The notes under the pieces were generated by a model. It was not told the DNA's origin. It did not search any database and worked only from the letters and a program-made list of their open reading frames with translations. A DNA stretch of 64,000 nucleotides from a virus, in IMG/VR virus record IMGVR_UViG_3300032257_000479, positions 96,001 through 160,000 of that record; one strand, given 5' to 3'. Shown piece after piece: positions 1,895 to 53,999 of the stretch. How positions within the stretch are numbered: position 1 is the stretch's first letter; the number at the start of each line of letters is the position of its first letter. Both the position numbers and the translations under genes were made by a program.

Positions 1895-1897
1895 CAA

Positions 1898-31637: not shown

Positions 31638-32411
31638 ATGAACTGGTACCAAACAATTACGGCAGAGCAAAAAATAGCATTCGATTATCGAGGTTCTATA
31701 AAAGGGTTACTTGGCGGGGCCATTCTAGGAACACCGCTAGCTTTAATGATTATAGTTAACTCTCTTAACACAACACCTCAGCAAGCTCAGCAAATAATAG
31801 ATCAAGAACCTCAAAGGGCTCAGCAAATAATAGATCAAGCTCCAGATGAGATTGTCGAAAAATCACAACAAGAAATTGGGCCTGAAGAAAATATTAATAA
31901 TGAACCTGCTCAACAACAAGCCGCAGCAATATCAATAGAAGCTCTTGCTCCTTTTGTTGCTCAATGGGAAGGTAAAGAGCCTTATGCTTATGTTGATGGA
32001 GATAGCAAATCAGTCGGTTATGGCTTCTACCTAGGAAACGCAAGCTCAAGGGAAACACTAGAATCAGTTGGAGCAAACTTTGATGCCGTATTCTCCGGAC
32101 AGCAACCACTCAATGATCCGCAAATGAACAGGCTTCTTCAGATAGGATGTCAAAGAGCAATACATGACGCAAAGTCTGCAATCCCTAGTTTTAATTCACA
32201 ACCTCTTTTGGTTCAAACTATTATGGCAGACATGGCATATACTCTTGGAAATAAAATTAGCGGATTTTCAAAAATGCTAAAAGCTCTTGAAATTCGAGAT
32301 TACAATAAAGTCGCGGAAGAGATGGAAGATTCCAAATGGTTTAGCGATATTGGAAACAGATCAAAAAGTCATATAAACCAAATAAAATCTTTGGCTTCTC
32401 AAAATCCTTGA
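31638..32411 (+). CDS. GH24 (T4-like) lysozyme with MNWY leader and TM segment
   Basis: WEG....AY.D....SVGYG, DMAY.LG...F.KML.AL...DY...A.EM.DSKW...G.R. 22-bp direct repeat at 31785/31818 encoding AQQIIDQ twice. Confidence 0.85.
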   Translation: MNWYQTITAEQKIAFDYRGSIKGLLGGAILGTPLALMIIVNSLNTTPQQAQQIIDQEPQRAQQIIDQAPDEIVEKSQQEIGPEENINNEPAQQQAAAISIEALAPFVAQWEGKEPYAYVDGDSKSVGYGFYLGNASSRETLESVGANFDAVFSGQQPLNDPQMNRLLQIGCQRAIHDAKSAIPSFNSQPLLVQTIMADMAYTLGNKISGFSKMLKALEIRDYNKVAEEMEDSKWFSDIGNRSKSHINQIKSLASQNP

Positions 32412-32980
32412 AGTAATAACTTGGCTATCTTATGAGAATTGATTGCATCAGATAAAGCTCTGTGTTGCTCGCCTTCCCAATCAAGACCCTCTCTCTCAAC
32501 AGCTTCTCTTAATCCGCACTCTACGCCTCTCATCTCTTTATACAAAGTTTTAAGACATATGTGTTCATTAAACGGAACAGGTATTCCGTGTCTGTAGCAA
32601 TCATTAATAATACAACCCTTATCCCATTTTCCCCATGATGCCCAGTTTATTTTAGATATGTTTACAGAATGTTCAACCTTTGCCCACTCTTTTAAATTTA
32701 AAACTACTTCTTCTAAATTTTGCGCCGAATTTACATCTTCTTGATCGATCTTAGTTAGCCTCCTGCAAAAAGGAGACATCTTTATATTAACGCATGGCTT
32801 TATAAATGATTGAAATTTTCCTATCATTTCGCCCTTTGTATTACACAGGACAACACCGAGTTCTATTATCTCGTTCATATCCTTTACATTACGGCGTTCC
32901 CAGCAAGTTGCCTCAAGATCGACTAGCAAAAATAATTTAGCCCCTTGGAGCCTTTGTCCAAATCTGGTATGTATACTCAT
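32399..32980 (-). CDS. ERI-1-like DEDDh 3'-5' exonuclease
   Basis: VDLEATCW, EIIE.G, FC..LT.I.Q, SWG.WD, HRAL.DA. Confidence 0.92.
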   Translation of the reverse strand: MSIHTRFGQRLQGAKLFLLVDLEATCWERRNVKDMNEIIELGVVLCNTKGEMIGKFQSFIKPCVNIKMSPFCRRLTKIDQEDVNSAQNLEEVVLNLKEWAKVEHSVNISKINWASWGKWDKGCIINDCYRHGIPVPFNEHICLKTLYKEMRGVECGLREAVEREGLDWEGEQHRALSDAINSHKIAKLLLQGF

Positions 32981-33449
32981 ATTTGTTATAAATATCTGAT
33001 TTATTATGTTTTTCCTCTATTAGATTCCATTCTTCTGGTATCTTAAAGAAAACATCTCCATCTGTTTCTGTATGTATTACTGTTCTTAATATTCTATCTG
33101 CTATAGGTAAGAACAGGTTGTATATTTCTGATCCGCCTATTACATAAAAATCTTTATTATGTCCATAAGCTTCTTCTATTGCTTTTTCAACAGAATTAAC
33201 AACGGTTGTATTGTTGATTCCGCAGAAATTTTGCCCCTGACCAATTTCACCACTCCTTGTTAAAACAATTTGATGGCGACGATCTAGATCAAAAGGAATA
33301 CTATTATACGTTTTCCTGCCCATAATGACAGGGTAGTCTATTGTGTTTTTTCTAAAAGACTTCATATCGTCTTTTTGATTAGTCCATGGCAATTCCCCAT
33401 TGACTCCAATGACATCGTTATTCGTTGTTGCTACAATTATATTAATCAT
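32937..33449 (-). CDS. folA: Dihydrofolate reductase
   Basis: [29 protein letters not shown]; adjacent to thyA. Confidence 0.95.
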
Positions 33450-34255
33450 ACTGATATCGGTGCCGAAATTCTTGGGTGAGGATCATATCCCTCTATTGTT
33501 ATATCTTCGTACTTGAAATCATAAATACTATCAACATCTTTTCTTAATGTTAATTTTGGAAATGATCTAGGCTCTCTTATTATTTGCTTGTCAACCTGAT
33601 CGAAATGATTTAAGTATACATGACAATCTCCGCCTGTCCAAACAAAGTTTCCAACCTCTAACCCGCACACATGAGCCATCATGTGAGTAAGAAGGGCATA
33701 TGATGCAATATTAAAAGGAACCCCCAAGAACATATCACAGCTTCTTTGATAAAGCTGACAAGATAATCTTTCGTTCGCTACATAGAATTGAAACAAACAA
33801 TGACAAGGAGGTAGAGCCATTGATGGAATATCTACAGGATTCCACGCCGTAACAATGTGGCGACGAGAGTCAGGATTGTTTTTTATAGACTCAATAACCT
33901 CAGTTATTTGATCTATGCCAAAATAATCTCTCCACTGTTTTCCGTACACTTTTCCTAAGTCGCCGTTTTCATCTGCCCAAGCATCCCAAATTTTAACACC
34001 ATTGTCTTGCAAATACTTGACATTTGTGTCACCCTGAAGAAACCAGAGCAATTCGTGAAAGATTGATCGGGTATGCAATTTCTTTGTTGTCAATAATGGA
34101 AACCCTTTTTGAAGATTGAACCTCATCTGGTGACCAAATATTGCTTTAGTGCCTGTCCCTGTTCGATCAGTCTTGTGGTCGCCGATCTCTTTTATCTGCT
34201 GAAGAAAATCCAAATACTGGCTTTCTTCTCGATTAGAAAATGAATCCGTCGTCAT
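33446..34255 (-). CDS. thyA: Thymidylate synthase
   Basis: [40 protein letters not shown]. Confidence 0.98.
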
Positions 34256-34652
34256 TATAGCCTTCTTTCCATTCCTGTCCCTCTCCCCAAGTATCGTCTA
34301 TATCTTCTTCATCATTAAACTCTACACTTATTTCGTCTACGCTTCTTAGCTCAAAAATTATGCCCTGAAGTTTTTTGTCAGCAATTTCTTGCATTGGGGC
34401 TATTGAATCGACTATCTTGACTCTCTCTAATTGATCTATCTTTCTGATTTTTTCTTTGAGTATATTCCATCTTCGAATAATGCAATACACATCTCTTTCG
34501 TATTCTGAGATATAATCATCTAACTTCATTGGGTAATAGCTTTTTGCTTTTTTCTTGCATTCAATCTGAGACTCAAGCAGAGTATCTAGTGTTACCTCGT
34601 AAGCTATTACTGCATCTTCTATCTTTTTCTCTATACCTGTAATGTTATCCAT
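34233..34652 (-). CDS. Hypothetical protein
   Basis: 139 aa, first gene after a sigma70 promoter. Confidence 0.7.
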
Positions 34653-34697
34653 AAAATTATCAAATCCTTATCTAAAACACTCAGTGTTTGATATATC

Positions 34698-34726
34698 ATT
34701 ATACCATAAAGCAATTACACTTTCAA
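34698..34726 (-). promoter_or_regulatory. sigma70-type promoter for the thyA-folA-exonuclease operon
   Basis: TTGAAA-N17-TATAAT with extended TG. Confidence 0.8.
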
Positions 34727-34733
34727 GCAAGTG

Positions 34734-34760
34734 AAGGCCATTAATCAAAAATGCCGAAAA
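34734..34760 (+). promoter_or_regulatory. Phage sigma28-like promoter (AAGG ... GCCGAAAA)
   Basis: AAGG lies 17 nt before CGA, the same spacing as at 23684-23710 and 59429-59455. Confidence 0.55.
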
Positions 34761-34804
34761 CATAAAAGAAGGAAAATCGTGAATGATTGGATTATTTAAT
34801 TAGT

Positions 34805-35425
34805 ATGAGCTGGTACGATAGAATTATGCCCACCATAAAAGAGCTTGAACCAAAAGTTTTGGCAAGCGCTGAATCTATATGCTTAATACCTGGCGTTAAG
34901 TCTGTTCACTCATGGGGAAACTACGCAGATTGTTTCAACAAAAAAGATACACCAATAAGAGAAGTCGATCTTCTTGTCTTAAGTTCATTTAACTCTGGCG
35001 ACCTCTTAGCAATAGACAGAGGCCCTATGGGGCCATTCAATATCGCCAAAGACGAACTCGAAGACTTGGGCTTTAACCCTCAAGCTGTAGCTTTCACGAA
35101 ACACCTTCTCAAAAAATGTGAATTCAAAACAGAATTCTGGACATTGTCTTCTGATAAAAAACTTTTACATTGGGGACCTGTATCTGATACTATAGAAGAA
35201 TGGAAAGAACTAAGGATACAAGCCGAAACAGAAGCAGAAGAAAAAACTGGATTTTGTCGAAAAACATTAAAGAAAGCTGATCAGCAAAAAGCCAAAGAGT
35301 GGATAGAGTCTTACGAAAACTCTCTTCAGTCATTCATTAACAAAGGCCCGCTAGGTTGGTACGAATCGACTTATTCGGAAAGCAATGACCTATATGAATC
35401 ATCAGAATGTCTCGCAAAAAACTAA
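34805..35425 (+). CDS. Degenerate Pol-beta-type nucleotidyltransferase-like protein beginning MSWY
   Basis: GVKSVHSWGNYA...REVDLLV resembles the minimal NTase motif. ATG 34805 preferred over the track TTG at 34787. Confidence 0.6.
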   Translation: MSWYDRIMPTIKELEPKVLASAESICLIPGVKSVHSWGNYADCFNKKDTPIREVDLLVLSSFNSGDLLAIDRGPMGPFNIAKDELEDLGFNPQAVAFTKHLLKKCEFKTEFWTLSSDKKLLHWGPVSDTIEEWKELRIQAETEAEEKTGFCRKTLKKADQQKAKEWIESYENSLQSFINKGPLGWYESTYSESNDLYESSECLAKN

Positions 35426-36080
35426 TTGCCCTATATGTAACTCTGAAACAAAAGATAAAAACGTTCATTTTTACAAATACAGAGACTGCTTATCTTGTGG
35501 TCACTCTTTTTCTTCTATAAATGAAAAAGCATCAACCAAACATTATCATAATGTTCATTTAAGAGAAATGAAAAGCAACGGAGAGCTTATGCAGCAAGCC
35601 GTTACAATGAATCATATTAAAAGAATGAACAAAATCGCTCAAGAAAAGAGAGAGCTGCTAACAATGTTCTCTCTTCATGGAAAGAGAATACTTGATTTAG
35701 AAGCTGAAACAGGAATGCTTAATGAGGATGATGGCGACATTACATCTTTGACTCAAATACCTCATATAAAAATAAATCTACTATCATCTAAATTCGACAC
35801 TATATACAATACAACTGGATTGTTTGATGCTATAATATCTTTTAACTATATAGAACATCAAAAAGATGTATTCAAAGATGCTCCGTTTATTTTAAACAAA
35901 TTAAATAAAAACGGAAAATGGATTGTCTCAATACCAATAGATAATGATCCATCAAAAAAATATACAGGAAGAATCCACGAATTTACTAATCATAGTTCCA
36001 TACTCTTTGCTAGCGAAATAAATTATGATTTCGAAATATTCAACAAAGGCGATTCAGTCGTCTTCGTCTTCTCCAAATAA
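35385..36080 (+). CDS. Zn-ribbon + degenerate class I methyltransferase-like protein
   Basis: CPIC...C.SCGH, RILDL...G, FDAIISFNYIEH, L..NG..I.S.P. Confidence 0.6.
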   Translation: MTYMNHQNVSQKTNCPICNSETKDKNVHFYKYRDCLSCGHSFSSINEKASTKHYHNVHLREMKSNGELMQQAVTMNHIKRMNKIAQEKRELLTMFSLHGKRILDLEAETGMLNEDDGDITSLTQIPHIKINLLSSKFDTIYNTTGLFDAIISFNYIEHQKDVFKDAPFILNKLNKNGKWIVSIPIDNDPSKKYTGRIHEFTNHSSILFASEINYDFEIFNKGDSVVFVFSK

Positions 36081-36437
36081 ATAATACTTTCCATCTTCTT
36101 CATCGTAGATAAATAATTCCGGATGCTCTTCTGACACATAGTGTAGTATCTCGTTATTTATAAAATCCATAAACTCAGCAAAAGTAATATTTCCGTCTAT
36201 TTTTCTTATAGGTATAATAGGTCTTCTGTAATCAAAATAAGCCAACAGTAAATCTTCTATTAAGGTGTATTTGTCGCCAATCTTATCGCTAGGAAGAACC
36301 TCTTTGTTAAGCATTCTCTCTTCATAGGTATCCCTAAAAAGAACGAAGAAACCGCAACTGATTTCTTCGTGACGATCCTGTGACATATATTCAAAATTTT
36401 CCATATGATCCATACTGTTTAAAAAATTATTATTCAT
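36054..36437 (-). CDS. Hypothetical acidic protein
   Basis: 127 aa, coupled to guaC. Confidence 0.7.
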   Translation of the reverse strand: MNNNFLNSMDHMENFEYMSQDRHEEISCGFFVLFRDTYEERMLNKEVLPSDKIGDKYTLIEDLLLAYFDYRRPIIPIRKIDGNITFAEFMDFINNEILHYVSEEHPELFIYDEEDGKYYLFGEDEDD

Positions 36438-37450
36438 TATTCATTTATTTCTGAGTTTCTCTCAAAAACACCATTCAATTGACGATTAACTCTAACAAAA
36501 GTTGTTCGCTTTGGTAGTTCTTTCAACCTCTCAGCTCCACAATATGCGCAACAAGAGCGAAGACCTCCCAATATATCATTTATAGTATTTTTGATTTGAC
36601 CTCTGTAAGGAAGGAGAACCTCTCTGCCTTCGGATGATCTGTAATCTTTAATCCCACCGTTGTGTCGTTCTTGGGCTAAATGAGAAGACATTCCATAGAA
36701 CTCTTTATATTTCTTGCCATTCTTTAGAATTACATCTCCTGGGCTCTCATCATGGCCAGCAAGCATACCTCCAAGCATAACAAAATCAGCTCCTGCTCCG
36801 AATGCTTTGCAAACATCCGCTGGAGACCTACAGCCTCCGTCTGCCATAACAAAGCCTTTCAACCCATGAGCAGCATCAGCGCATTCTATAATGGCTGACA
36901 ATTGAGGATAGCCAACACCAGCCTTCATCCTAGTAGTGCATCCGCTTCCTCCGCCAATTCCAACTTTAACAATATCTGCTCCCTCTAGAATCAATCTTTC
37001 TGTCGCCTCTGGGGTGCAAACATTGCCAGCAACAATAATTGTGTCAGGAAATGCTTCTCTTGCTCTTTTTACAAGTTTAAAAAATTTATCCATATAACCG
37101 TTTGCAACATCTAAGCATAACATGTTTGGATGTTTAGATGTATCTTCTGGAAAATCTTTGTAGCCCATTGTCATAAATGAATGATTATGAACACTAGCGT
37201 TTTGCCAATATTTAGCATCTTTAGGCAAAGCCGTCATCATGCTACTTTTTGCCATTATTTCAGAAATATTAATGCTAGAAACAGAAGCCATGTTCGCTGC
37301 AACAACAGGTATGCAGTCTAATTTCTTGTTGGAATACAAAAAAGAGAATTCTCTCTTTAATCCAACTTCGCTTCTTGAATCCAGCAAACTTTGCTTAGGA
37401 CACATTAGAACATCATCAAAATCTAATTTTATGTCATCTTGTATTCTCAT
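36437..37450 (-). CDS. guaC: GMP reductase
   Basis: MRI..DIKLDF.DVL, DVANGY, AGNV.T, KVGIG.GS.CTTR, GVGYPQLSA, YRSSEG. Confidence 0.95.
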   Translation of the reverse strand: MRIQDDIKLDFDDVLMCPKQSLLDSRSEVGLKREFSFLYSNKKLDCIPVVAANMASVSSINISEIMAKSSMMTALPKDAKYWQNASVHNHSFMTMGYKDFPEDTSKHPNMLCLDVANGYMDKFFKLVKRAREAFPDTIIVAGNVCTPEATERLILEGADIVKVGIGGGSGCTTRMKAGVGYPQLSAIIECADAAHGLKGFVMADGGCRSPADVCKAFGAGADFVMLGGMLAGHDESPGDVILKNGKKYKEFYGMSSHLAQERHNGGIKDYRSSEGREVLLPYRGQIKNTINDILGGLRSCCAYCGAERLKELPKRTTFVRVNRQLNGVFERNSEINE

Positions 37451-37494
37451 AACATACTAATCGACAATGATGGAAGACAAGGCTAACTAGGCAC

Positions 37495-37518
37495 GAAAAA
37501 AGCCCCAAAAAATGGAGC
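37495..37518 (-). terminator. Intrinsic terminator after ligA
   Basis: GCTCCA stem pairing with TGGGGC across a T loop, followed by a T6 tract on the minus strand. Confidence 0.7.
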
Positions 37519-37519
37519 C

Positions 37520-37579
37520 ATGATCGATAAGTGAATTATTTATCGCTCAAAATAGAGCAGAATATGATCGATAAGTGAA

Positions 37580-37582
<3 letters not shown>
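37520..37582. repeat. 19-bp perfect direct repeat ATGATCGATAAGTGAATTA (37520-37538, 37564-37582)
   Basis: Read directly; 44-bp period; the second copy overlaps the ligA stop. Confidence 0.9.
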
Positions 37583-39577
<1,995 letters not shown>

Positions 39578-40237: not shown

Positions 40238-40324
40238 AAATACATTTTGCTGTAATCAAATACTTATTTGAACAGGCAGAGTCCTTTGTTTTGACACTTT
40301 TTTGATGTACCTTGGCATTGGGGA

Positions 40325-41560: not shown

Positions 41561-41567
41561 AAATACT

Positions 41568-43069: not shown

Positions 43070-43117
43070 AATAGTATTTCGTCTACTATTCAAAGTTTCA
43101 TTTAGTCAACCACACTA

Positions 43118-44014: not shown

Positions 44015-44064
44015 TGATAATCCTTAAAGCATAATGCTATAGGGATTATCGACAAAAAAGCTAA

Positions 44065-44466
44065 TCAAGAAGAGATTGACCAGTTACCGGATTCATCTTG
44101 CCCCCAATATTTCCAGGCAAAAGGAATGTAATGCACGTTAGAAAAACCAGCATCCTCAAGAATACCTTTCATTATCAATCCGCCAACATTGTTTAAAGAA
44201 TGTATAACAATGGTTTTGTCGGAATAACTTTTAATTGTAGAAAGATGGCGAGCAACGGTTCTTCCGTCCTCTTCGTCATCATTTAACTGATTGTTTGTTT
44301 CCCAATTTAAATCATGATCCAAAAATACAACATCATAATCATCATTATTGTCTAAAAGATCAATAGCTTCTTGAGCGGTAAACGCATTGTCCACATGACA
44401 ACCTATAGCGTTTGGCCTAAATACATTGTGCCTATTTTGATCATCATCTAAAAATAAAACTTTCAT
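44065..44466 (-). CDS. Cyclic-phosphate processing receiver (cREC-like) domain protein
   Basis: VLFLDD...R, DVVFLDHDL, G..VA, IVIHS.N..G..M. Confidence 0.8.
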   Translation of the reverse strand: MKVLFLDDDQNRHNVFRPNAIGCHVDNAFTAQEAIDLLDNNDDYDVVFLDHDLNWETNNQLNDDEEDGRTVARHLSTIKSYSDKTIVIHSLNNVGGLIMKGILEDAGFSNVHYIPFAWKYWGQDESGNWSISS

Positions 44467-45224
44467 AACAGCCTTTCTTTCAAAAAATCAACAACATCAT
44501 TTGCGATTATCTCGTAATACAATTCATCAACCGCCTCTTGATTTAAGTGTTCTTGCAAATTATTATTTTCTATAGCAAATAATAATTCCTTGTCCAGCCT
44601 TTCTACTTCTTTTTCAACAAGATCAAAAGATATTTTTCCCTCTCTTATATCAACAAGAAGGTCTGCTTCTGGCCTAGGAAAAGTCATAGATCCAGTTTTT
44701 GCTAATTCGATACCTTGACTCAAGAGTCGAACTGCGTGATATGCATTTTTTACGGAGTATCCATATTTTTTGTAAGAATCTTTTCTTTTGGCTCCAACAA
44801 CTCTTTTGCTGTGATAAATATCTCCTGTCTCCTTGTTCTTTGTCTTTAACTGAGCTTTTAACCACTCTGACATAGCAAATCCTGAAAAAGGCATTAGCTG
44901 AGACTTTGTCACAAACAAATTTTTGTTATCTATGATTTTTCTTCCATTTTCTGAGCATGTTAAAACATGAGATTCAGGAGCAAAAAGGATCTCAAAAGTA
45001 TTGGGGGTTCCCTTTACCAGTTGATTAAGAAACTTTACAAGTCCCCAGATCACAACATCATTAACCTTATCTTCGTGTTGTTCAAATCTTCTTCTGCCAA
45101 GAAAGCAGTTTGCTGGCTCAACAACAAAACCTCTTAAGTCATCATCAGATGATGGAGTAGAGCACCCATACAGCCTGCTGCCTGTTCGGATAAGTAAGTC
45201 TGGTTTTTCCCAAAAGTTTTCCAT
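44463..45224 (-). CDS. RlaP/YcgL-type Pol-beta superfamily nucleotidyltransferase
   Basis: GSRLYG..TP.SD.DLRG, G.PN..E.LF, G.KR......GY..K.AYHA.RLL..G.E. Start moved to ATG 45224 because the track extension is the tRNA. Confidence 0.88.
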   Translation of the reverse strand: MENFWEKPDLLIRTGSRLYGCSTPSSDDDLRGFVVEPANCFLGRRRFEQHEDKVNDVVIWGLVKFLNQLVKGTPNTFEILFAPESHVLTCSENGRKIIDNKNLFVTKSQLMPFSGFAMSEWLKAQLKTKNKETGDIYHSKRVVGAKRKDSYKKYGYSVKNAYHAVRLLSQGIELAKTGSMTFPRPEADLLVDIREGKISFDLVEKEVERLDKELLFAIENNNLQEHLNQEAVDELYYEIIANDVVDFLKERLL

Positions 45225-45226
45225 AA

Positions 45227-45300
45227 TTCCCCGCAGTGGATTTGAACCACTAGCCTTCGATCCCAAAAAATCAATGCTCTTCCAATTGAGCTAACGGGGA
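45227..45300 (-). tRNA. tRNA (Gln-like, U1:A72) with an 8-nt anticodon loop UUUUUGGG; no encoded CCA
   Basis: TCCCCGT/GCGGGGA acceptor, GCTC-AATTGGAA-GAGC D arm, TTGAT/ATCGA anticodon stem, AGTGG-TTCAAAT-CCACT T arm. Confidence 0.88.
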
Positions 45301-45437
45301 ACTAGGTAGCCATAACTGTATAATGCCTTTTCTTCGCGACCTACCAATAGAAGCAAAAAGGCAAATATGTACTACCTAGATTTATTTATTTTCGACCAAT
45401 TATAGGCCTCATGAAATGTAAACACACGTGAATTCTT

Positions 45438-46130
45438 CTAAATGTCCTCAAAATTACTCAAGTCCTTATCAGGAAAATCTTCATGACCAGGTGTAATGAA
45501 TTCTCCAAATGTTAAGCTAGGGGAATGATAAGGAACAAGAGCCCATCTGCATGATCCTTTTTCTGTGTAGAAAAATCTAACGGTATCATGAAGACTGTCA
45601 TTAGTTGATGCAAGAATTATAGTTGGAGTAATAACGTCTCTTATTAAAATAGAGAACAATGATTGAGAATGAGTCCAACCAGTTTCTTCCATTATCTTTA
45701 TCAGTATTACAGATAAAACTCTATCTGAATCTCTTTTTGTTAGCCCATGATTTATTTGAAACAATATTTCACTAATAAAAGAGAAGCTATCTCTCATGCC
45801 AAGCAATACTACAGTGTTCTGCAAGTCAAGGCTCAATTTTGATTTGCATGCGATTTTAGGATCATTTGATTCATACGAGGTCTCTTCTCCGGTTTTTGAG
45901 TTGACAACAGTTTTATCTACTATCTTTATTTCTGGCATAATAAAAAGATTTTCTGTTCCAACTTCAACCTTTTCAAAATCCATGTATTCAATTTTTTCGG
46001 GAAAAGAAAAAACCTCTTTATCAAAACGAGGGAAAAGATTGATTATTTCTTCTGGTGAAAAACTTTTAGCTTTATCTTCAAAGTCAAAGTCAATTTCATC
46101 TGAAGAATGCCTTAAAGCCATTCTCTTCAT
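45438..46130 (-). CDS. Hypothetical protein; frame open about 50 codons further upstream
   Basis: 230-aa track ORF with an open upstream frame to about 46286. Confidence 0.75.
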   Translation of the reverse strand: MKRMALRHSSDEIDFDFEDKAKSFSPEEIINLFPRFDKEVFSFPEKIEYMDFEKVEVGTENLFIMPEIKIVDKTVVNSKTGEETSYESNDPKIACKSKLSLDLQNTVVLLGMRDSFSFISEILFQINHGLTKRDSDRVLSVILIKIMEETGWTHSQSLFSILIRDVITPTIILASTNDSLHDTVRFFYTEKGSCRWALVPYHSPSLTFGEFITPGHEDFPDKDLSNFEDI

Positions 46131-46317
46131 GTCTGTAGGCGATATTTTGTTAACAGGTGCTACGTCTTCTTTTGTTTCAATGATTTCTTCTACTGCATCA
46201 GATACCCTTTCAAGAATTTTTCTTGCGATATTTTTAGCTCTGTGAAGAAAATTTTTGTTGTAATTATTGATATTAAACCTCCATACTCATTAACAATATC
46301 GACATTATATCTTTAAT

Positions 46318-46345
46318 TAAATTTCGCTCCACTAATTGCCGATAC
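46318..46345 (+). promoter_or_regulatory. sigma28-like promoter TAAA-N16-GCCGATAC for the glycan operon
   Basis: Near-consensus FliA promoter, back to back with GTCGATAT (46296-46303, minus). Confidence 0.65.
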
Positions 46346-46383
46346 CTTTATGGGATATACAATATTAATCAGGAATACCATCT

Positions 46384-46749
46384 ATGACCGAAGGAACAGA
46401 CCCAAGAGATATGCTAAAGAAGTATATGGATTCTCAAAACGAGAATACATATCATCACAAGCCATTAGGAGAGCATATGTTTGGTTGTTTTTTCGAACTA
46501 ATAGGTAAATTGTTGTTTTGTCCCAGCGCTTGCGGACAGATTGTTGTTTCTGCTGGATCCCAGGAATTGTTTATTAAAACATGTTTTACTCCTTCTGAAG
46601 TATATATATCTATAGGGGAAACTGAAGGAAAACCAGGCTGCGGCCCTATATCAGATTCATTTGATATAAAGTATGTTCCAAAAGGATTTATATTAAAAAG
46701 CAAAACAAACAGCCCAAGAAGGAAAATAAAATGGAAAGCAATAGGCTGA
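46384..46749 (+). CDS. Hypothetical protein
   Basis: 121 aa, first gene of the plus-strand operon. Confidence 0.6.
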   Translation: MTEGTDPRDMLKKYMDSQNENTYHHKPLGEHMFGCFFELIGKLLFCPSACGQIVVSAGSQELFIKTCFTPSEVYISIGETEGKPGCGPISDSFDIKYVPKGFILKSKTNSPRRKIKWKAIG

Positions 46750-47729
46750 TAAACGTAATAGGGTGGTATGATAAAAACAACATAGGAGATGAAGCATACA
46801 AGATTTCTTTTAAAAAAATATGGCCAAATGCCAATTTTGTTTTTTCAGATATCCCAATAGAATCAGCAGATGAATATGTTATAGGAGGAGGAGATGTTGT
46901 TTCATCTTCTCTTTTAAATAGTGTTTCTAAAATAAAAAACAATAAAAATATGATGAGTATATCTTTCCCAGACAGTGTTAGCGATAATCACTTTGATGAA
47001 TTTCAGAGAGTTTGGGTTAGGGATCAATATTCCCTTGATAACGCAGTTAAATTTGGGCTTAAGAATGCAGAAATAGTGCCTGACTTTGCTTTCTCGCTAA
47101 ACGCTGATCAAAGAAAGGGAGATCAAATACTAAAAGGGATTTTTAAGAAAGAAAAACTTGATCTTTATTCAAACAGAATTGGTATTATAGTAAACGCCCA
47201 CATGATGACTGGACATAATTGTTCAGCAGTTAAGTCTTCTTTGTTTGAAAAATTTACATGGGAACTTTCGTCTTTTTGTGATAATTATTCCGCGAGCTTT
47301 ATTTTCATTCCATTCGGAACATCATTTCCATGGGATGACAGAGCAGCAGCATCATCCGTTGCCTCAAAATGTAAATTCTGGAAAAAGAATTGCGTAATTT
47401 ACGACAGAATGACGGTTCAAGATACGCTTGATTTGGTTTCATCTCTCGATGTTTTGATTAGTACAAGATTGCATGGATCAATATTTTCAACGATAGGGAC
47501 AACCCCATTTGTTGATATAACACATAATCACAAAAATATAAATTTCCTCAAAACAATAAACGAAGAAAGAAACGCCATCAGTTATTCTTCATTTCAAAAA
47601 GAAGAACTAAAAAATATGATTGATGAAAGAATTATTTGTAAAAACAAATACTCAGCAGACCTAAAAGAGAAAAGAGATGAACAAAAAAGAATTATCAAAA
47701 GATACTCAGACACAATATCTTTCCTATGA
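46731..47729 (+). CDS. Polysaccharide pyruvyl transferase family protein
   Basis: GWY...N.GDEA, IGGG, VRD..S, VPD.AF, IS.RLHG.I. Confidence 0.9.
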   Translation: MESNRLINVIGWYDKNNIGDEAYKISFKKIWPNANFVFSDIPIESADEYVIGGGDVVSSSLLNSVSKIKNNKNMMSISFPDSVSDNHFDEFQRVWVRDQYSLDNAVKFGLKNAEIVPDFAFSLNADQRKGDQILKGIFKKEKLDLYSNRIGIIVNAHMMTGHNCSAVKSSLFEKFTWELSSFCDNYSASFIFIPFGTSFPWDDRAAASSVASKCKFWKKNCVIYDRMTVQDTLDLVSSLDVLISTRLHGSIFSTIGTTPFVDITHNHKNINFLKTINEERNAISYSSFQKEELKNMIDERIICKNKYSADLKEKRDEQKRIIKRYSDTISFL

Positions 47730-48999
47730 TAAAAATTATATAATTAGATCTGTTTCAACTTCTCCAATAATAGCGGAAGGACAGAGAACAAAGCTAGTAG
47801 TAAGTGATAGTGATCTAAAACATTTTGTTGGAAAAAAGGTTGTTTACGATATGCTTGATTCAAAAGATATTAATAAAAAAGAAATTAATGAATTAAAGGT
47901 TGCCATAGTTTGTAACTGGAATGACAAATGCGGCATATCAACATATACTGGATACTTAGCAGGAGCAATAGCTCCCAAAATAAAAGAAATGAGAATATTT
48001 TCGGAAACTACAGAAGATAAAACTTTTGAAGACGAAGATTTTGTTGATAGGTGCTGGACAAGGGGAGAAAGCCTTCTTCCTCTCGCTCAAAAAATACTAG
48101 ATTGGGAACCTGATTTAATTATTGTTCAACATGAATATGGCATTTTCCCAAATGCGTTTCGATTTATGCAGTTTATGGAAGCTCTAGATGGAACACCATA
48201 TGTTGTCGCCATGCACTCTGTTTATGAGCATTTAGATAAACTCGTTTACACAGAAGCTTGCAAAAACATAATAGTCCATTCTGATGAAGCAAAGAACACC
48301 CTCAAAAGACTAGGAAATACAAGAAATATAGACGTTATACATCACGGTTGCGTTTCGGTTCAAGAGACAGAAGAATTATGGAATATCATGCAAAATCCAT
48401 ACACTGTAATGCAATTTGGATTTGGTTTTAGTTATAAAGGTGTAGATAGGGCAATTAAAGCAATATCTCACTTAAAGAAAACAGACCCTAAATTTGAAAA
48501 TATATTCTATTTTTACCTATGTTCAACAAACTCTCACAACCTAATTGCTCAAAATGAATACTACGAAGAGCTTGTTCAATTAGCTGAAGAAGAAGGGGTT
48601 AGAGATAATATTGCAATCGTAAGAAAATATCAAAGCGAAATGATGCTTAGCCTCTATCTTAGATTAGCAAAACTTATTGTTTTCCCATATGTTGTAAATG
48701 GAGACAACAAAGTATATGGAGCGTCAGGGGCCATACGAGTAGCAATGGCTCATGGCAAACCCGTTGTAGCATCCGATTCTCATTTGTTTGATGATCTTGA
48801 AGGTATTATACCAAGACCAAACAGTTCGCTTGCTTTGGCTGAAGAGATAGACAAAATTTTCAGTAGCGATGAAGAAAGAAATGAAATAATTAACTCTGGC
48901 TTAAACTATGTCCAAACACACACATGGGATTATGCTGCAGATCAGTATTTGGCTTGTTACGAAAAAGTTTTGAAGCAAAATATAGTTTCAAGTGATTGA
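47677..48999 (+). CDS. GT4-family (GT-B) glycosyltransferase
   Basis: CGI.TY, VQHEYG.F, IIVHS, FGF...YKG, VFPY...SGA...AMA.GKPVV.SD. Confidence 0.9.
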   Translation: MNKKELSKDTQTQYLSYDKNYIIRSVSTSPIIAEGQRTKLVVSDSDLKHFVGKKVVYDMLDSKDINKKEINELKVAIVCNWNDKCGISTYTGYLAGAIAPKIKEMRIFSETTEDKTFEDEDFVDRCWTRGESLLPLAQKILDWEPDLIIVQHEYGIFPNAFRFMQFMEALDGTPYVVAMHSVYEHLDKLVYTEACKNIIVHSDEAKNTLKRLGNTRNIDVIHHGCVSVQETEELWNIMQNPYTVMQFGFGFSYKGVDRAIKAISHLKKTDPKFENIFYFYLCSTNSHNLIAQNEYYEELVQLAEEEGVRDNIAIVRKYQSEMMLSLYLRLAKLIVFPYVVNGDNKVYGASGAIRVAMAHGKPVVASDSHLFDDLEGIIPRPNSSLALAEEIDKIFSSDEERNEIINSGLNYVQTHTWDYAADQYLACYEKVLKQNIVSSD

Positions 49000-49031
49000 T
49001 TGTTTGTTTATAAAAAACTGTCCGATATATA

Positions 49032-49123
49032 GGTAGCTGCTTCCGATTGATGCGAATCTCGGAGACAGTCCCTTCCCGCAGCCCCGTCAGATTTTACTCC
49101 TATTAGATCTGGCGGGGTATTTT
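49032..49123 (+). ncRNA. Candidate ~90-nt small RNA with own promoter and terminator
   Basis: TCCGATAT element at 49021-49028, stem CTGCTTCCGA/TCGGAGACAG capped by GAT-GCGA-ATC, then a terminator hairpin. Confidence 0.5.
49082..49123 (+). terminator. Strong hairpin terminator between convergent operons
   Basis: CCCCGTCAGAT...ATCTGGCGGGG followed by TATTTTT. Confidence 0.75.
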
Positions 49124-49800
49124 TACCAACCCACAAACGCTTTATCTTTTATGTCTTTTATGCTACCGGATTCTATCATAGAATATGGTATATCTTGGAA
49201 CCATTTGTTGTTTGCATGCACAAATATGTTAAACGAAGCGATTAAAGCGCTCTCCCCATATGCTTCGTATAATCCATCAGATATTTTCTTTAGGTCACCC
49301 CTGGACAAAGTGTATGTTTCCACATTTTGTCCAGCAAGTCTTTTCCATCCCCAATTTTCTTTTGCATACAAAACAGCGTCCCCGTGACCAGATGCAACAT
49401 CTGCCTCTTTTCCGCTCGCTCCGTTTATTTTCAATATGTCAGATAGGACAGTATTATTTACAGCTATTTCAAAAAAAGTTTCGCCATTATTAATGGGTGA
49501 GCCATTGTTCATATTATGAAGAGCCAATTGTCTTTCTTCTTCAGGTATAAAACCTTCTATCCTTATCATGTGTTCAACTATGCTTGCCCAATCTTGTTGA
49601 ATATAGCTTTCTATAAATTCGGAACTTGAAGGATCATCAAATTCATTTAAATCTAAATAGGTTTCAACAATATGTCGAAGAACATAACCTTCGTGATTAA
49701 TATCTCCAACATCTCCATCTGCATAATGAGCATTGCCAAATTGGTCAATCCAATATTCACCTTGAATCTGAGCCATTTTTATTAATTGATACCAATTCAC
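49123..49800 (-). CDS. MNWY-leader protein (MNWYQLIKMAQ), unknown domain
   Basis: GTG start, 225 aa. Confidence 0.8.
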   Translation of the reverse strand: MNWYQLIKMAQIQGEYWIDQFGNAHYADGDVGDINHEGYVLRHIVETYLDLNEFDDPSSSEFIESYIQQDWASIVEHMIRIEGFIPEEERQLALHNMNNGSPINNGETFFEIAVNNTVLSDILKINGASGKEADVASGHGDAVLYAKENWGWKRLAGQNVETYTLSRGDLKKISDGLYEAYGESALIASFNIFVHANNKWFQDIPYSMIESGSIKDIKDKAFVGW

Positions 49801-49802
49801 TA

Positions 49803-50141
49803 TTAACTTCCCAATAATTCGCAGTTTTCAAGAATTGCTTGTCTAACTGTTATTTCACTATTTTGATGATAAGGATCTCCGTTTATAATATCTTGATCCG
49901 AAAAAGAATATGTAAGAAGCATATCTTGATCTTCTGTTAATCCAGAATAGTAATCAGTGCAGAATTTTTTAGATGTTCCAAGATAAACTCCATTACCTCC
50001 CATTTCAGCAGAAGCACCTATTGTGGTGTTTATTACTTGATTAGCGTCATACAAAGATCTGGCTGATTGACCATCCCAGGCTACAATTTTGTAGCCGAAC
50101 AGTTTTTGCTGAGATGTTTTTAGTAAACCAAACCAATTCAT
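49803..50141 (-). CDS. MNWF-leader protein (MNWFGLLKTSQ), possible ADP-ribosyltransferase-like fold
   Basis: GYK...GNGVYLGTS.....YY...LL.Y...SEI resembles an ART core; weak. Confidence 0.7.
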   Translation of the reverse strand: MNWFGLLKTSQQKLFGYKIVAWDGQSARSLYDANQVINTTIGASAEMGGNGVYLGTSKKFCTDYYSGLTEDQDMLLTYSFSDQDIINGDPYHQNSEITVRQAILENCELLGS

Positions 50142-50143
50142 TA

Positions 50144-50365
50144 TTAAGCTAACCTTTGTTGCATTAGATTTATAACAGATTGCTCATCATATCCTTTTGA
50201 AATATAATCAACAGCTTCATCTATAAGATGTTGTTGTTGACTCGCATCCAGATTGCGACTTCTCGATAAGCCTTTTATCATTTGAACAATTCTGCTTTTA
50301 GATTTTTGATCATCTTGATAACCAATAAAACTGTCTGCTTTTTTAATTTGAGAATACCAGTTCAA
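50144..50365 (-). CDS. MNWY-leader small helical protein (MNWYSQIKKAD)
   Basis: TTG start after AAGGAG, promoter element GACGATAA at 50410-50417. Confidence 0.8.
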   Translation of the reverse strand: MNWYSQIKKADSFIGYQDDQKSKSRIVQMIKGLSRSRNLDASQQQHLIDEAVDYISKGYDEQSVINLMQQRLA

Positions 50366-50444
50366 TTAATAGCTCCTTATCTGTAAAAAAATGCCAAGAT
50401 AGATAATATTTATCGTCTTGGCATCAAAATCCTTCTTATTCTTA

Positions 50445-51125
50445 TTAGCTGCTGAATTCGTTCCTAAAACTTTCGTCATATTCATTGCTAAATTTCAGTA
50501 GTTTTAGCATTGCCAATTTGGGGTCTCCATCATTATTTATTCCAACAAAAGCATCTATCTTCTTTTTGTTTTTATAAAACCATTTCTTTTCGCTATCCCA
50601 CAAAGAAAGACCATCCTCATCTTGATTTATATACAATTTTAAAAAAGAAGATTTTATTCCAGCGACTATTGCGTTATCTGTTTCTCTTTCTTCTAATAAT
50701 GCGTTTGCAGTTTTTATTGTCCACGGCGAAGTGTTTGGGCAATGCTTATCCAAATATTCTAAGTCTGCTGCAATAGTCTTTTTCGCCTGTCTTCTTCCTG
50801 CCCCTTTGCTTTTTGGGTTTTCGACAAGGCCCATTGCTGATTCTTTATCATACCATAGCTGAAGTCTATCAACAAGGAGCTGCAATTCATTTTCTCTCAT
50901 GGAAGAGGATTCTAAAGATACAACTTTTTGCCACATATCATAGCACTCTTGGCCAGCTTTAGATTTCTTTTCCCAGTAAGCTGTCTCTACCCTTTTGTCT
51001 TGAGTGTCCGCCATTCTAGCCAAATTTGTGAACATATCCCATGTATAATGGACTGCTCCCATCTTTTTCGCAAACAAAGGCATTAATTCCGTGTCAAATA
51101 TTTCTTCTGCTTTTTTTGTACTCAT
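50445..51125 (-). CDS. Hypothetical protein
   Basis: 226 aa, ATG 6 nt after GTCGATAA. Confidence 0.8.
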   Translation of the reverse strand: MSTKKAEEIFDTELMPLFAKKMGAVHYTWDMFTNLARMADTQDKRVETAYWEKKSKAGQECYDMWQKVVSLESSSMRENELQLLVDRLQLWYDKESAMGLVENPKSKGAGRRQAKKTIAADLEYLDKHCPNTSPWTIKTANALLEERETDNAIVAGIKSSFLKLYINQDEDGLSLWDSEKKWFYKNKKKIDAFVGINNDGDPKLAMLKLLKFSNEYDESFRNEFSS

Positions 51126-51169
51126 AATAATTTATCGACTCATAACAATAAATTGTTACAAACAAACAC

Positions 51170-51379
51170 TTATATGGGATAATCTGTAGGGTCAGGCTCT
51201 GCTGGAACATCATCAGCATCCATGAAAAATGATCTTATTTTTGCAAGCCTATTCATTTTCACCCAAGCTCTATGGTGAATGTTAAAATCGGCCCAATCGC
51301 CAGTTGGGGGAACTATCTTGCCTGCAATAATAGAGGCCATAATTTCTTCTTCAACATATGCTGGATCTGGTTCAGGCAT
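51170..51379 (-). CDS. Small hypothetical protein
   Basis: GGAG SD, EPDP motif at both ends. Confidence 0.65.
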   Translation of the reverse strand: MPEPDPAYVEEEIMASIIAGKIVPPTGDWADFNIHHRAWVKMNRLAKIRSFFMDADDVPAEPDPTDYPI

Positions 51380-51397
51380 TTTATTCTCCCATTATAC

Positions 51398-51904
51398 TTA
51401 ATAGCCGCTTCTTTGCTTCTCCAGAAAAGCGTCAGTTTCTGGTCTTTCTTTTGAATCATAAAAAGATGGCTCAGTTTGAATAGATGAAAAATCAAGAACA
51501 ATCAAAGCAGGAAAAGATTTGAATCCCATTTGAATTAAAGAATCAAACCTATGAGCACCCTCAAGCAAATAAGGATAAGGCTCTTCATCATAAACAATTA
51601 TCAAAGGCTCTATCGATTGATTCTGCTGAATCTCCTGACCCAAAGAATGTAAATAATCTTTTTCCGACTGATTATTCGCGGAAGAAGAAAGATTCTCAAA
51701 AACAGAAAATGGAACCTCTCTAACGCCAGGCAAAGATTCCCATTTAGTAAAACTAGCATCAAGAGAAGACATGGAATTACCAATAGGTCTAATAGCCATG
51801 CTGCCAAAAGAACTTATAGAAGGAAAACTATTCGCAACCTGATAATTAGGATGCGATTGAATTCCGACCTCTTGAGCAATTTTTATTTGCCTATACCAAT
51901 TCAT
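51398..51904 (-). CDS. MNWY-leader ParB/Srx-like domain protein (MNWYRQIKIAQ)
   Basis: L.QEI.....IEPLII......LLEGAHR...L...G....PALI. Confidence 0.8.
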   Translation of the reverse strand: MNWYRQIKIAQEVGIQSHPNYQVANSFPSISSFGSMAIRPIGNSMSSLDASFTKWESLPGVREVPFSVFENLSSSANNQSEKDYLHSLGQEIQQNQSIEPLIIVYDEEPYPYLLEGAHRFDSLIQMGFKSFPALIVLDFSSIQTEPSFYDSKERPETDAFLEKQRSGY

Positions 51905-53508
51905 ACAACTCGAATCCTTATTTTTGTTATTCTGCTTTTTATATTTGGATTCAACTTATTGTAAACCCTTGCCTTAATAACAGTATTATCAGAACCAGTT
52001 AAGTTTCTATTTAAGACAAGTGGACCAGAATACAATTTACTCTTACTTGTTGGATTCTTACCATTTGTAGTATATCGAACCTCATGGTTCGAGTCAGTTT
52101 CTTCCAAAACAATAGTTGCAGGCCTTGATACAGGAAGCTCCAATGGCATCTCTTCAATATCATGACCAGATCTCCTTGTTGAATAAGAATTGTTCTTTAT
52201 GCTAAAGGATGGAGAAGCTATAGCTGAAGGAGGAGTTGTTGTTCCTATAACTCTTGTTGTCGCAGGATCTAGCACCCAGTTCTCCTCCTGAAAATGCCAT
52301 TCAATATCTTTCGCAAACGCTATCGCATCTTTCGCCGCATTTGGGTGAACGCCTACATCTAATTCAATACCATCTGTAACAACTGTTCCGTCAAGTTGAG
52401 TAGCTCTTCCATCTGGAGTTAATCCGTCGTAAGAATCCCACATACTTATATAGCCGTAAGTATTTTCGGTGCAAATATCAAGAAGATCGCTAGCTTTTGA
52501 TGCGGTCATTGCATGAGAGACATCAGCATTCCAAGGGGCAATACATAAAACATCAGGTGACGAATATCCATTATCTGTATGAGCATCTTTCCATGTATCT
52601 ATGAGGGACTCCATGTTCGCTTTATAAGCACCAGAGTCTTCAGCATTATGTCCAGTCATGAATATAATCAAATCATAACCCTCTGCAACATCAATTAATG
52701 ACTTTCTTGCTGCAACGCTTTGCCTGTTTACCAAATCATAAGCAGACCAAGAAGACCTTGCTGTATTTGTTAGAACAAGTCCTGTGCTAGGGAATGTTTC
52801 TCCGGATGGGGAGTTGTAGATGAGAGAGCCTAGAATCTGAAGCTCCCTATTCGTATCATTGTTATTAGAATCTTTTACTACGATACCGACCGGAGAAGAA
52901 CCAGAACCGGGGAATGTCGCCTCATTTCGAATGGGCCAGTTCAATATTCTTAACGCATCCGATGCATCAAATACAACAGGGTCTCCGCCTATACCGAAAT
53001 CTTCCGAAGCTCCATTTGATGTTCCTCGTCTTTCTGCGATCCTCATTCTTGCAAAAGTTCCAGCGGCATCCCTAAGAATGGTTCTACTGTTTTTGCGAGC
53101 ATCCAAGTCAATAGCATTTGTGTGTCCTCCAACAGCCCACTGATAAGTTCCTAAGTTAGAAAAGTTAGGACTTATAGTGCCTGCAACATCCCATGAACGG
53201 CTATGCTGAATGTGATCGCTTGTATTTCCATCTCCCCAGTTAGTTTGTTGGATAAGCGAAGTTCTGGTAATCGTTGCTCCAAAATCGCTTGAATCAGGAT
53301 TTGCCGAATGAGATTGCCCAACAGCGGCATTTCCTACTCCATGAATAAAAGCTCCAACATGCTGTATTGCCCATTTCTGAGTTTGACCAACCCATCTCTC
53401 CTCTGTTCTAAGAGATTGGGAATCTCCAACAATGAGAACCTTCGTTAATGAAGAAGAAGCTCTTGTTGGTAAAACTATTTTATCTAAATTTTTATTTAAT
53501 TGAGCCAT
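51901..53508 (-). CDS. SGNH-hydrolase-like protein with C-terminal Fn3-associated (CHB_HEX_C-type) module
   Basis: IVGDSQS, MTGHN, VHPN; tail EVRYTTNGKNPTSKS.LY.....IKAR. Confidence 0.75.
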   Translation of the reverse strand: MAQLNKNLDKIVLPTRASSSLTKVLIVGDSQSLRTEERWVGQTQKWAIQHVGAFIHGVGNAAVGQSHSANPDSSDFGATITRTSLIQQTNWGDGNTSDHIQHSRSWDVAGTISPNFSNLGTYQWAVGGHTNAIDLDARKNSRTILRDAAGTFARMRIAERRGTSNGASEDFGIGGDPVVFDASDALRILNWPIRNEATFPGSGSSPVGIVVKDSNNNDTNRELQILGSLIYNSPSGETFPSTGLVLTNTARSSWSAYDLVNRQSVAARKSLIDVAEGYDLIIFMTGHNAEDSGAYKANMESLIDTWKDAHTDNGYSSPDVLCIAPWNADVSHAMTASKASDLLDICTENTYGYISMWDSYDGLTPDGRATQLDGTVVTDGIELDVGVHPNAAKDAIAFAKDIEWHFQEENWVLDPATTRVIGTTTPPSAIASPSFSIKNNSYSTRRSGHDIEEMPLELPVSRPATIVLEETDSNHEVRYTTNGKNPTSKSKLYSGPLVLNRNLTGSDNTVIKARVYNKLNPNIKSRITKIRIRVV

Positions 53509-53516
53509 AATATTCC

Positions 53517-53999
53517 TTAAATATAATTATCACCCGATTCGTGATCATCGTAACCATCGTTGTAAAGTTCTTCCTGAGGTTCCTGATGTTTTATTATTGA
53601 ATCTCTAACAAAATTCATCATAGTTGCAGGTACTGCGTTTTGAGATTGAAAGATTTGACTGCCCACAATCTGAGAATCAGTCAGAACAGAAACATTTGCT
53701 CTCAATAAATTCTGAGAAGGCTGATTGTTTACGCCCTTCAAAGTTCCAGTCCCCATTTCCCCAAAAGTTGAACCCTGAACCATTTCTGAAAATTGTAATT
53801 GAATACGACAAGCGTAATTTACATTATTAAATATTGAATTGAAACGAAAACTGACATTTCTTCCGTCGTTTATGGAACTTGCCCTTGGATCAAAAATTAC
53901 GCCAGCGTCCTTCAAAATAAAATCCGCGGTATTGGAAAGATGATCGTAAAAACGAACCCACCAATCTGTCTCAAGTTGAGCTATTTTATACCAATTCAT
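53517..53999 (-). CDS. MNWY-leader protein (MNWYKIAQ), unknown domain
   Basis: 160 aa, ATGA overlap with the upstream gene. Confidence 0.8.
   Translation of the reverse strand: MNWYKIAQLETDWWVRFYDHLSNTADFILKDAGVIFDPRASSINDGRNVSFRFNSIFNNVNYACRIQLQFSEMVQGSTFGEMGTGTLKGVNNQPSQNLLRANVSVLTDSQIVGSQIFQSQNAVPATMMNFVRDSIIKHQEPQEELYNDGYDDHESGDNYI

Follow-up and report, generated by a model that had tools for sequence, protein, structure and literature searches.

The window analysed here is a stretch of 64,000 nucleotides (bases 96,001-160,000 of a 169,505-bp IMG/VR viral record; coordinates refer to the window unless 'genome' is stated). Several of its genes encode otherwise unrelated proteins that begin with the same short peptide, MNWY followed by K-x-A/S, hereafter called the MNWY tag. 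By analogy with known packaging systems, this tag is probably a short linear motif in two parts that directs proteins into the capsid during its assembly, where it would be trimmed by the prohead protease and from which the cargo would be injected. A role as a capsid tag had been put forward in the original prediction, made from the sequence of the window, and it is partly supported. An indirect link with the head is provided by the motif itself, by sister tags in head proteins, by the N-terminus of the scaffold and by the cargo. However, the tag is neither strictly a leader nor a one-off invention.

The virus can be assigned from its sequence to the huge phages of the Bacillus phage G lineage. 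This assignment is made because the record (169.5 kb, G000 below) is collinear with a complete 488-kb relative carrying terminal repeats (G001; L and P codes designate individual sequence entries), and because its major capsid protein (MCP) is 92% identical to that of G001, 81%, 81% and 74% identical to those of three further records (461-548 kb, rated 98-100% complete, one labelled as a provirus) and 53% identical to that of cultured phage G. The portal protein shares 31.6% identity with that of phage G. The MCP is of the small HK97 type (PHROG 3.7e-67), and a terminase large subunit is also encoded (PHROG 1.2e-28). The 25% completeness estimate probably overstates the final size of the phage.

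Six open reading frames (ORFs) of the window, and one more in another part of the record, start with MNW[Y/F], with K-x-A/S lying 0 or 3 residues further on. The tripeptide found most often directly behind the start codon is NWY (6 cases among 378 ORFs of at least 60 amino acids, aa), while the expectation for such starts, calculated from composition, is 6e-5 per ORF or about 0.02 in total. The pattern NW[YF] occurs only nine times in the 54,050-aa proteome: seven of these occurrences are tagged N-termini and one lies at the C-terminus, itself conserved, of a protein of the head module. The six unrelated ORFs with a shared start that were described in the original prediction are thus confirmed, and the seventh lies at genome 72680 on the minus strand. 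Two further ORFs proposed at the same time as variants, at 34805 and 59404, are both real although weaker members. A literature search on 'MNWY' returned only unrelated antibody and other papers. The tagged proteins and the two variants are as follows.

31638..32411, plus strand: lysozyme-like tagged protein, 257 aa; ATG start, MNWYQTITAEQKIAF; a hydrophobic helix at about aa 22-42 and a Q-rich linker precede the lysozyme domain.
34805..35425, plus strand: variant MSWYDRIMPTIKE, 206 aa from this ATG; MSWY lies 6 codons inside the longest ORF.
49123..49800, minus strand: tagged candidate cargo, 225 aa; GTG start, MNWYQLIKMAQ; its family is conserved throughout the clade.
49803..50141, minus strand: tagged candidate cargo, 112 aa; ATG start, MNWFGLLKTSQ.
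50144..50365, minus strand: tagged candidate cargo, 73 aa; TTG start, MNWYSQIKKAD.
51398..51904, minus strand: tagged candidate cargo, 168 aa, weakly ParB-like (PHROG ParB-like nuclease, E 0.0017); ATG start, MNWYRQIKIAQ.
53517..53999, minus strand: tagged candidate cargo, 160 aa, with the short form of the tag; ATG start, MNWYKIAQ; the G001 ortholog starts MNWWKKAQ.
59165..59404, minus strand: protein with a displaced tag, 79 aa; AWSYAKKKIAQ from residue 9; the G001 ortholog starts MAWYRQIKAQ.
Genome 72680, minus strand, outside the window: 2H/Acb1-like phosphoesterase (Pfam 3.9e-6 and 4e-5), MNWYRTIKES.

The tagged set of this genome therefore comprises a lysozyme with a membrane helix, a weakly ParB-like protein, a 2H/Acb1-like phosphoesterase and four proteins of unassigned function. 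The lysozyme assignment rests on a PHROG tail lysozyme match (1.7e-7) and a Pfam Phage_lysozyme match with an E value of 0.003, below the cut-off. The ortholog of the 34805 protein in G001 starts MRWYQRALPTIG (MRWYQR) and keeps the aromatic pair with no adjacent K-x-A; from these starts the 34805 protein is regarded as a weak member. The 112-aa protein has no Pfam or PHROG match and no homolog in G001. For the 225-aa protein, whose family carries the signature GE[YF]WI..ADGD[IV]GDYNHE..WGWKR, there is no Pfam or PHROG match and no usable Atlas match. Comparison of its predicted structure with the PDB gave no match either (best Foldseek E value 0.76; best Z score of 4.3 in the wide VIA-align search), and the model may possibly represent a new fold. 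This model is confident (predicted local distance difference test, pLDDT, 87.5), except that residues 1-13 are unstructured (average of about 50, no secondary structure); the fold starts right after the tag.

At genome 72162-73072 (L006:10163-11073), the Acb1-like gene is translationally coupled to an upstream gene of 131 aa starting MWFKEAL. This is another start combining aromatic residues with K-x-A, in this case lacking the Asn.

A degenerate DNA pattern for MNWYKxAQ identified 36 stretches on about 25 viral contigs, many of 460-550 kb, and these stretches of relatives contain 95 ORFs starting with MNW[YF]. M, N and W are invariant in the 95 tags and Y is found in 94 of them. K-x-[A/S] follows at offset 0 in 69 tags and at offset 3 in 18, offsets 1 and 2 being almost never used. 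The residue behind it is most often Q (53 cases), and is less well conserved than the A/S position itself. The bodies of the tagged proteins are unrelated, with a mean column identity of 4% in an alignment of 85. Scanning the genome and its relatives and cataloguing the cargo, as the original prediction had proposed, thus yields a short peptide shared by 7 otherwise unrelated proteins in G000 and 95 in relatives, with more than 20 Pfam families represented among 85 of them.

The nucleotides encoding the tag vary freely. The synonymous codons used in the 95 tags are AAC (53) and AAT (42), GCA (40), GCT (14), GCG (3) and GCC (2), and CAA (43) and CAG (9); the tagged ORFs of the window start with ATG, GTG and TTG. 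Upstream of the tags of relatives only a weak purine-rich stretch is seen (a weak ribosome-binding signal), with no other conservation. Because synonymous and start codons vary and the upstream region is unconserved, selection acts on the peptide, in agreement with what had been claimed from the window alone. The shared start could otherwise be a feature of the DNA, such as a cassette recombination joint, a translational operator or an initiation enhancer, the peptide being a by-product. The arrangement of the tagged genes, which are in tandem, tightly packed and variable between relatives, would suit such an origin. This explanation is nevertheless very improbable given the variation just described, the presence of copies deep inside ORFs and the fact that orthologs keep the peptide as their DNA diverges. 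A DNA-level cassette or operator is rejected by the codon and upstream analysis.

Copies of the tag are not restricted to N-termini. Internal or C-terminal copies are located at domain junctions in proteins of L044, L017, L038, L043, L029 and P0007 and in a kinase fusion (G001, L040). A 596-aa protein of the 461-kb relative starts MNWYLKNIFAQ and has an exact NWYKIAQ match at residue 455; behind this match comes a second domain, which elsewhere forms a stand-alone tagged gene. A protein of 586 aa has tags near both ends, and another of 920 aa ends with NWYKKVKNA-MV. A database ortholog of the 225-aa protein starts MIKKSQ, and QNWYSIIKTSS precedes its added C-terminal domain. In G001 and L040 the homolog of the 73-aa protein forms the C-terminal domain of a P-loop kinase, in which the internal tags read ..KANWYGKLKLAS.. 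and ..KSNWYKNLKQS..; the flanks have diverged and NWY..K.[AS] is unchanged. Perfect internal matches to NWY[KR].AQ number 2 for 0.0075 expected. From these sequences the tag is a position-independent linear motif rather than strictly a leader. The internal copies argue against any function that needs a free N-terminus, and they fit a docking and cleavage motif that would also split polyproteins.

The link between the tag and head assembly is drawn because its K-x-A-S/Q half is the dominant motif of the head module, taken here as the products of the genes between those of the MCP and the 144-aa protein, both included. When all gapped tripeptides of the G000 head module were ranked with no motif specified in advance, K.AS came first (21 occurrences for 3.0 expected, p 1e-11), followed by VK.A, KTA, KIA and K.AQ. 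In the head module of G001 K.AS ranks fifth (14 for 2.6 expected) and KTA is also near the top. K-x-A-[S/Q] is seen 31 times in the head module for 5.6 expected and 15 times in all other G000 proteins for 16.3 expected, 4 of these 15 sites being within tags. The tail and baseplate proteins of 2,500-3,200 aa contain none or one such site each. The K-x-A-S/Q sites form conserved islands within otherwise diverged head-module sequences. Furthermore, three small conserved proteins of the module start M..FNL..K.A, a sister form of the tag. The relevant genes are given below.

1..1897, minus strand: head-module protein, 636 aa; the start codon lies 13 nt before the window.
1898..2341, minus strand: head-module protein, 147 aa; sister tag MQEVFNLQKESEH; 12 orthologs have F[NDE]L..K.A-type N-termini.
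2341..4605, minus strand: portal, 754 aa (PHROG portal 1.8e-43); VP[LI]T[KR]x[AS]Q near the N-terminus (around aa 55-60); DUF559/Vsr-like nuclease domain at the C-terminus.
5094..6617, minus strand: head-module protein, 507 aa; two internal look-alikes of the tag, FNLLKEAQ and FNLKKEAQ.
8129..8872, minus strand: head-module protein, 247 aa; four V-K-x-A-S sites in acidic linkers.
8869..10440, minus strand: head-module protein, 523 aa; the first 40 aa or so form a segment ending in h-K-x-A-Q (h, hydrophobic), directly followed by YVG.QGYWIRN.
11957..12391, minus strand: head-module protein, 144 aa; K-Q-A-Q at the N-terminus, K-x-A-S/Q sites further inside and, at the C-terminus, a conserved (N)W[YW].
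14174..14734, minus strand: head-module protein, 186 aa; sister tag MGSFNLKLYKEAK, then a Gly/Pro-rich stretch; four orthologs start M(x)FNL..K.[AS].
14744..15460, minus strand: head-module protein, 238 aa; sister tag MAKFNLRKQAKK; the G001 ortholog starts MSFNLKNNKKVAQ.

Several of these sites are strongly conserved. The second FNL.K.AQ copy of the 507-aa protein is present in 11 of 11 relatives, and both copies align residue for residue with MNWYKxAQ. The site of the 523-aa protein and the invariant block YVG.QGYWIRN behind it are kept in 10 of 11 relatives, and its N-terminus has, judging by sequence, the architecture of a removable propeptide. The N-terminal VP[LI]T[KR]x[AS]Q of the portal, followed by a Gly-rich stretch, is likewise found in 10 of 11 relatives. 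The small FNL-tagged proteins of the module and a 291-aa protein have no PHROG or Pfam match.

Some additional features of these genes can be mentioned. The C-terminus of the 144-aa family contains a conserved K-x-A-S .. (N/S)W[YW]x[RH], which corresponds to the two halves of the tag in reverse order. The DUF559/Vsr-like endonuclease domain of the portal occupies about aa 594-740. In other relatives (L048-L055) the portal ORFs are 1,100-1,849 aa long compared with about 755 aa, pointing to additional insertions, for instance of inteins or homing elements. A DUF192 (COG1430) protein with a weak WYL-like C-terminus is encoded in the middle of the head-morphogenesis module (10452-11375, minus strand; Pfam 1e-28).

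A protein with many copies of the motif is encoded outside the window, directly downstream of the 636-aa gene.

Genome 90238-95913: protease-scaffold protein, 1,891 aa; 16 K-x-A-S/Q sites and the N-terminus MTMYKKSS.

Its eight orthologs contain 6-15 K-x-A-S/Q sites for 1.4-2.0 expected, and.AQM.GGQM is present in the scaffold of 9 of 9 relatives. The N-terminus is itself tag-like, the orthologs starting MSLYKKAK or MSFTKRAS. Residues 49-197 match head maturation proteases (PHROG 18299 at 1.1e-10 and phrog_2774 at 1.3e-31); the E value against Pfam Peptidase_S78_2 is 0.094 and no PDB match was obtained by sequence. The 50 best Foldseek matches to a low-confidence model of this domain are all herpesvirus assemblins or T4 gp21, with E values of 3e-3 or above and TM scores of 0.2-0.4. 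His100 and His114 are invariant and G-T-S-M-G is conserved, with a putative role in the active site. A complex prediction for the protease domain and the first 60 residues of the 225-aa protein gave a score of 0.00 and a mark of 0.32, which counts neither for nor against binding.

In L052:11244-18599 and L054:10500-17615 the protease domain is interrupted exactly at G-T-S-M-G by an insertion starting C-F-P..D-A-P-V-L-M-S.G-T-E-K. From its sequence this insertion looks like an intein in the putative active site.

No protein of phage G (NC_023719.1) starts with MNWY. At least 21 proteins of this phage start MKRL[IVMF][KR]K[AS], some of them after a short mis-called extension. They include gp17, gp38, gp334 (annotated NUDIX), gp345, gp346, gp347 and gp351; the RefSeq starts of gp334, gp345, gp346, gp347 and gp351 already coincide with the start of the MKRL tag, and gp13 has the variant start MKRLISKTA. 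Several MKRL-tagged proteins go on with (Y/F)HGT-type motifs, which may be ADP-ribosyltransferase-like. The head region of phage G is enriched in KTA (11 for 2.2 expected), K.AS (12 for 2.7) and RL.K (10 for 2.0), and several of its small head-module proteins have RLKK-type starts. On sequence grounds, an h-K-x-A/S core is common to the lineage, with an address half that has drifted from KRL to NWY or FNL. The presence in phage G of a diverged tag with the same core implies that the system predates the MNWY form. No description of the shared MKRL start was found in the papers examined. The main text of the phage G proteomics paper (10.1101/2024.12.16.628780) contains no mention of the gp336 multigene family or of packaged or injected proteins.

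The tag could bind another partner, such as a chaperone, a site at the membrane or cytoskeleton, or a protease adaptor for which it would be a degron, its likeness to the head motif being coincidental or due to shared regulation. The head placement of the tagged proteins is one that we infer, and MKRLIKK of phage G resembles ClpX N-terminal recognition signals; moreover ClpP and ClpX are among the proteins of phage particles according to the phage G paper. Such a partner is nonetheless unlikely: G001-G003 carry tags, yet neither ClpP nor ClpX was detected in G000-G003, copies located inside proteins or at C-termini argue against an N-degron, and the motif excess is confined to the head module, the giant tail and baseplate proteins being almost devoid of sites. 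A degron for a phage-encoded ClpXP is in particular unlikely, because the complete genomes G001-G003 are tagged and lack ClpP and ClpX.

The cargo families were determined by a Pfam search of the 85 tagged proteins. GNAT (4), AAA_33 kinase (3), cREC_REC (2), DUF5661 (2) and methyltransferase (2) domains are among those that recur, while the single cases include ART-PolyVal, PcfJ, Tad6, 2H/Acb1-like, PolyA_pol, HATPase_c, SLT, Zeta-toxin-like, HicA-toxin-like and glucose-6-phosphate dehydrogenase (G6PD) domains. Tad6 is a Thoeris inhibitor. No MuF domain is included in the Pfam matches of the 85 proteins. The median length of the tagged proteins is 158 aa versus 201 aa for all G001 genes. By comparison, this repertoire resembles known injected proteins. 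The head protease could instead use the motif as a substrate or for docking on proteins that act in the prohead (assembly, DNA condensation) or that are switched by the protease in the infected cell, with no delivery at all. The evidence tying K-x-A-S/Q to head proteins serves this explanation equally well, and tagged metabolic enzymes such as G6PD make poor injected effectors. It is nevertheless improbable, given that ART-PolyVal, PcfJ, Tad6, Acb1-like, SLT and Zeta-like cargo matches proteins acting at entry. Moreover, three of the seven MNW[YF] proteins of G000 have no homolog in G001, so that the tagged genes behave as accessory, and variable cargo of this kind is typical of arms-race effectors rather than of assembly factors.

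In the favoured reading, a capsid tag followed by injection, the aromatic half of the motif (N-W-Y, F-N-L in head-module proteins, K-R-L in phage G) would be an address docking on the scaffold core or on the interior of the shell. The prohead protease of the phage, which would correspond to the N-terminal domain of the 1,891-aa protease-scaffold fusion, would recognize the second half (hydrophobic-K-x-A-S/Q). It would remove the tag and, in proteins with several tags, separate the individual domains. The scissile bond would be A|S/Q, a position probably correct because of the analogy with the A|S site of assemblin. The released proteins, mostly small enzymes, would then leave the head together with the DNA.

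Several points weigh against this scheme. Docking, cleavage, presence in the virion and injection are all steps that we infer by analogy. The assignment of the head module depends on gene position and on four annotated anchors (MCP, portal, protease and terminase). The model of the protease domain is poor (pLDDT 49.8), and its catalytic residues are candidates only. The scaffold's own K-x-A-S/Q sites lack the NWY half, and the role of the aromatic half as an address is for this reason a guess. The ortholog of the lysozyme in G001 starts MSWYQHQ and has no K-x-A; the lysozyme, in which a membrane helix comes right after the tag, could simply be a signal-anchor endolysin of the ordinary kind. 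In one paralog family of relatives, the residues behind K-x-A are L/V-P instead of Q/S. Finally, the original prediction held that no metabolic enzyme carries the leader. This is true within the window; however, G6PD is tagged in a relative and a NUDIX-annotated protein is tagged in phage G, neither of which is an obvious injected effector.

The closest functional parallel is the capsid targeting sequence (CTS) of the T4 internal proteins IPI-III and Alt (Mullaney & Black 1996; PMC9026906). The internal proteins of T4 have propeptides of 10-19 residues, the first part of which mainly serves targeting while the final residues serve processing; close to its N-terminus gp21 carries a match to its own logo, through which it may be targeted; Alt is a packaged ADP-ribosyltransferase processed at both ends; and CTS-like sequences are carried by varied small proteins that differ among T4 relatives (PMC9026906). 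Both systems involve a two-part peptide of about ten residues on unrelated proteins (with cleavage at the end of the tag expected here by analogy), a protease with a tag-like N-terminus, an ADP-ribosyltransferase among the cargo, and cargo with both ends processed (T4) or tagged (here). They differ in the motif, NWY..K-x-A-S/Q as opposed to the L/I-x-E logic and glutamate-ending sites of T4, and in the virus, which is here of a phage-G-like lineage with a small HK97-type MCP lacking the delta domain and with the protease fused to a giant scaffold. The present system, known from sequence, also has many more cargo families and copies inside proteins. Neither sequence nor lineage indicates kinship to the T4 CTS or to a T4-like phage. 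The system thus appears to work like the CTS system and not to be homologous to that of T4, because sequence, lineage and protease-scaffold architecture all differ.

In the giant phages phiKZ and SPN3US (gp245; PMC10052503, PMC5694885) the head likewise contains numerous internal proteins, the protease is gp21-like, and a short cleavage motif recurs, also within the propeptides. Their propeptides are long and protein-specific, with a different terminal motif (PMC10052503, PMC5694885). Unlike here, no shared portable N-terminal address is described in those papers. As regards cleavage, herpesvirus assemblin cuts Ala|Ser after an upstream hydrophobic residue. Assemblins provide the best fold matches to the protease domain, and the motif described here likewise has a small residue (A/S) then S/Q with a hydrophobic residue upstream, whereas no sequence similarity to the protease domain is found. 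Encapsulin cargo peptides are similar in being short and portable and in bringing unrelated enzymes into a shell of the HK97 fold. Found in bacterial nanocompartments rather than virions, they are usually C-terminal, bind the shell directly and remain uncleaved. Phages and conjugative elements also have polyvalent proteins and MuF-fused polymorphic toxins, reportedly treated by Iyer et al. and by Jamet et al. in 2017, which share domains with the present cargo (ART-PolyVal, PcfJ, Zeta-toxin-like, methyltransferases, SLT) as well as the idea of enzymes delivered with the DNA. Delivery in those cases involves covalent fusion to MuF or one giant polypeptide, while separate small genes are tagged with a peptide here.

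A broader proposal is that a position-independent code (an aromatic address plus an h-K-x-A-S/Q cut site), extending from phage G to phages of 0.46-0.55 Mb, turns almost any enzyme into packaged, protease-released and injected cargo, including Tad6, Acb1-like proteins, ADP-ribosyltransferases and multi-effector polyproteins. This generalization is tentative, and we would not yet favor it. If the capsid-tag reading is correct, huge phages of the phage G lineage would carry a readable, sequence-defined list of the proteins packed in their heads, and injected proteins, including counter-defence enzymes, could be catalogued from metagenomes with a simple motif. Very large capsids would be explained in part as protein carriers, and an 8-residue tag might serve for filling a very large capsid with foreign proteins. 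The cognate MKRLIKKA/S in the culturable phage G makes the idea directly testable with mass-spectrometry data like those already collected from particles.

The tagged genes of the window are co-oriented and tightly packed with three large Fn3_assoc/CHB_HEX_C paralogs (535, 774 and 647 aa; 51901-58279, minus strand). These paralogs share a C-terminal domain and are interleaved with the tagged genes in one operon. None of the three matches a PHROG family, and one has a weak GDSL-esterase match in Pfam. They could be virion-associated glycan esterases. ARAGORN also identified a tRNA-like gene with undetermined identity and a four-base anticodon (tttg) at 45226-45301 on the minus strand. It overlaps the 5' end of ORF 44463-45266 and may be either an artefact or a frameshift-suppressor-like tRNA.

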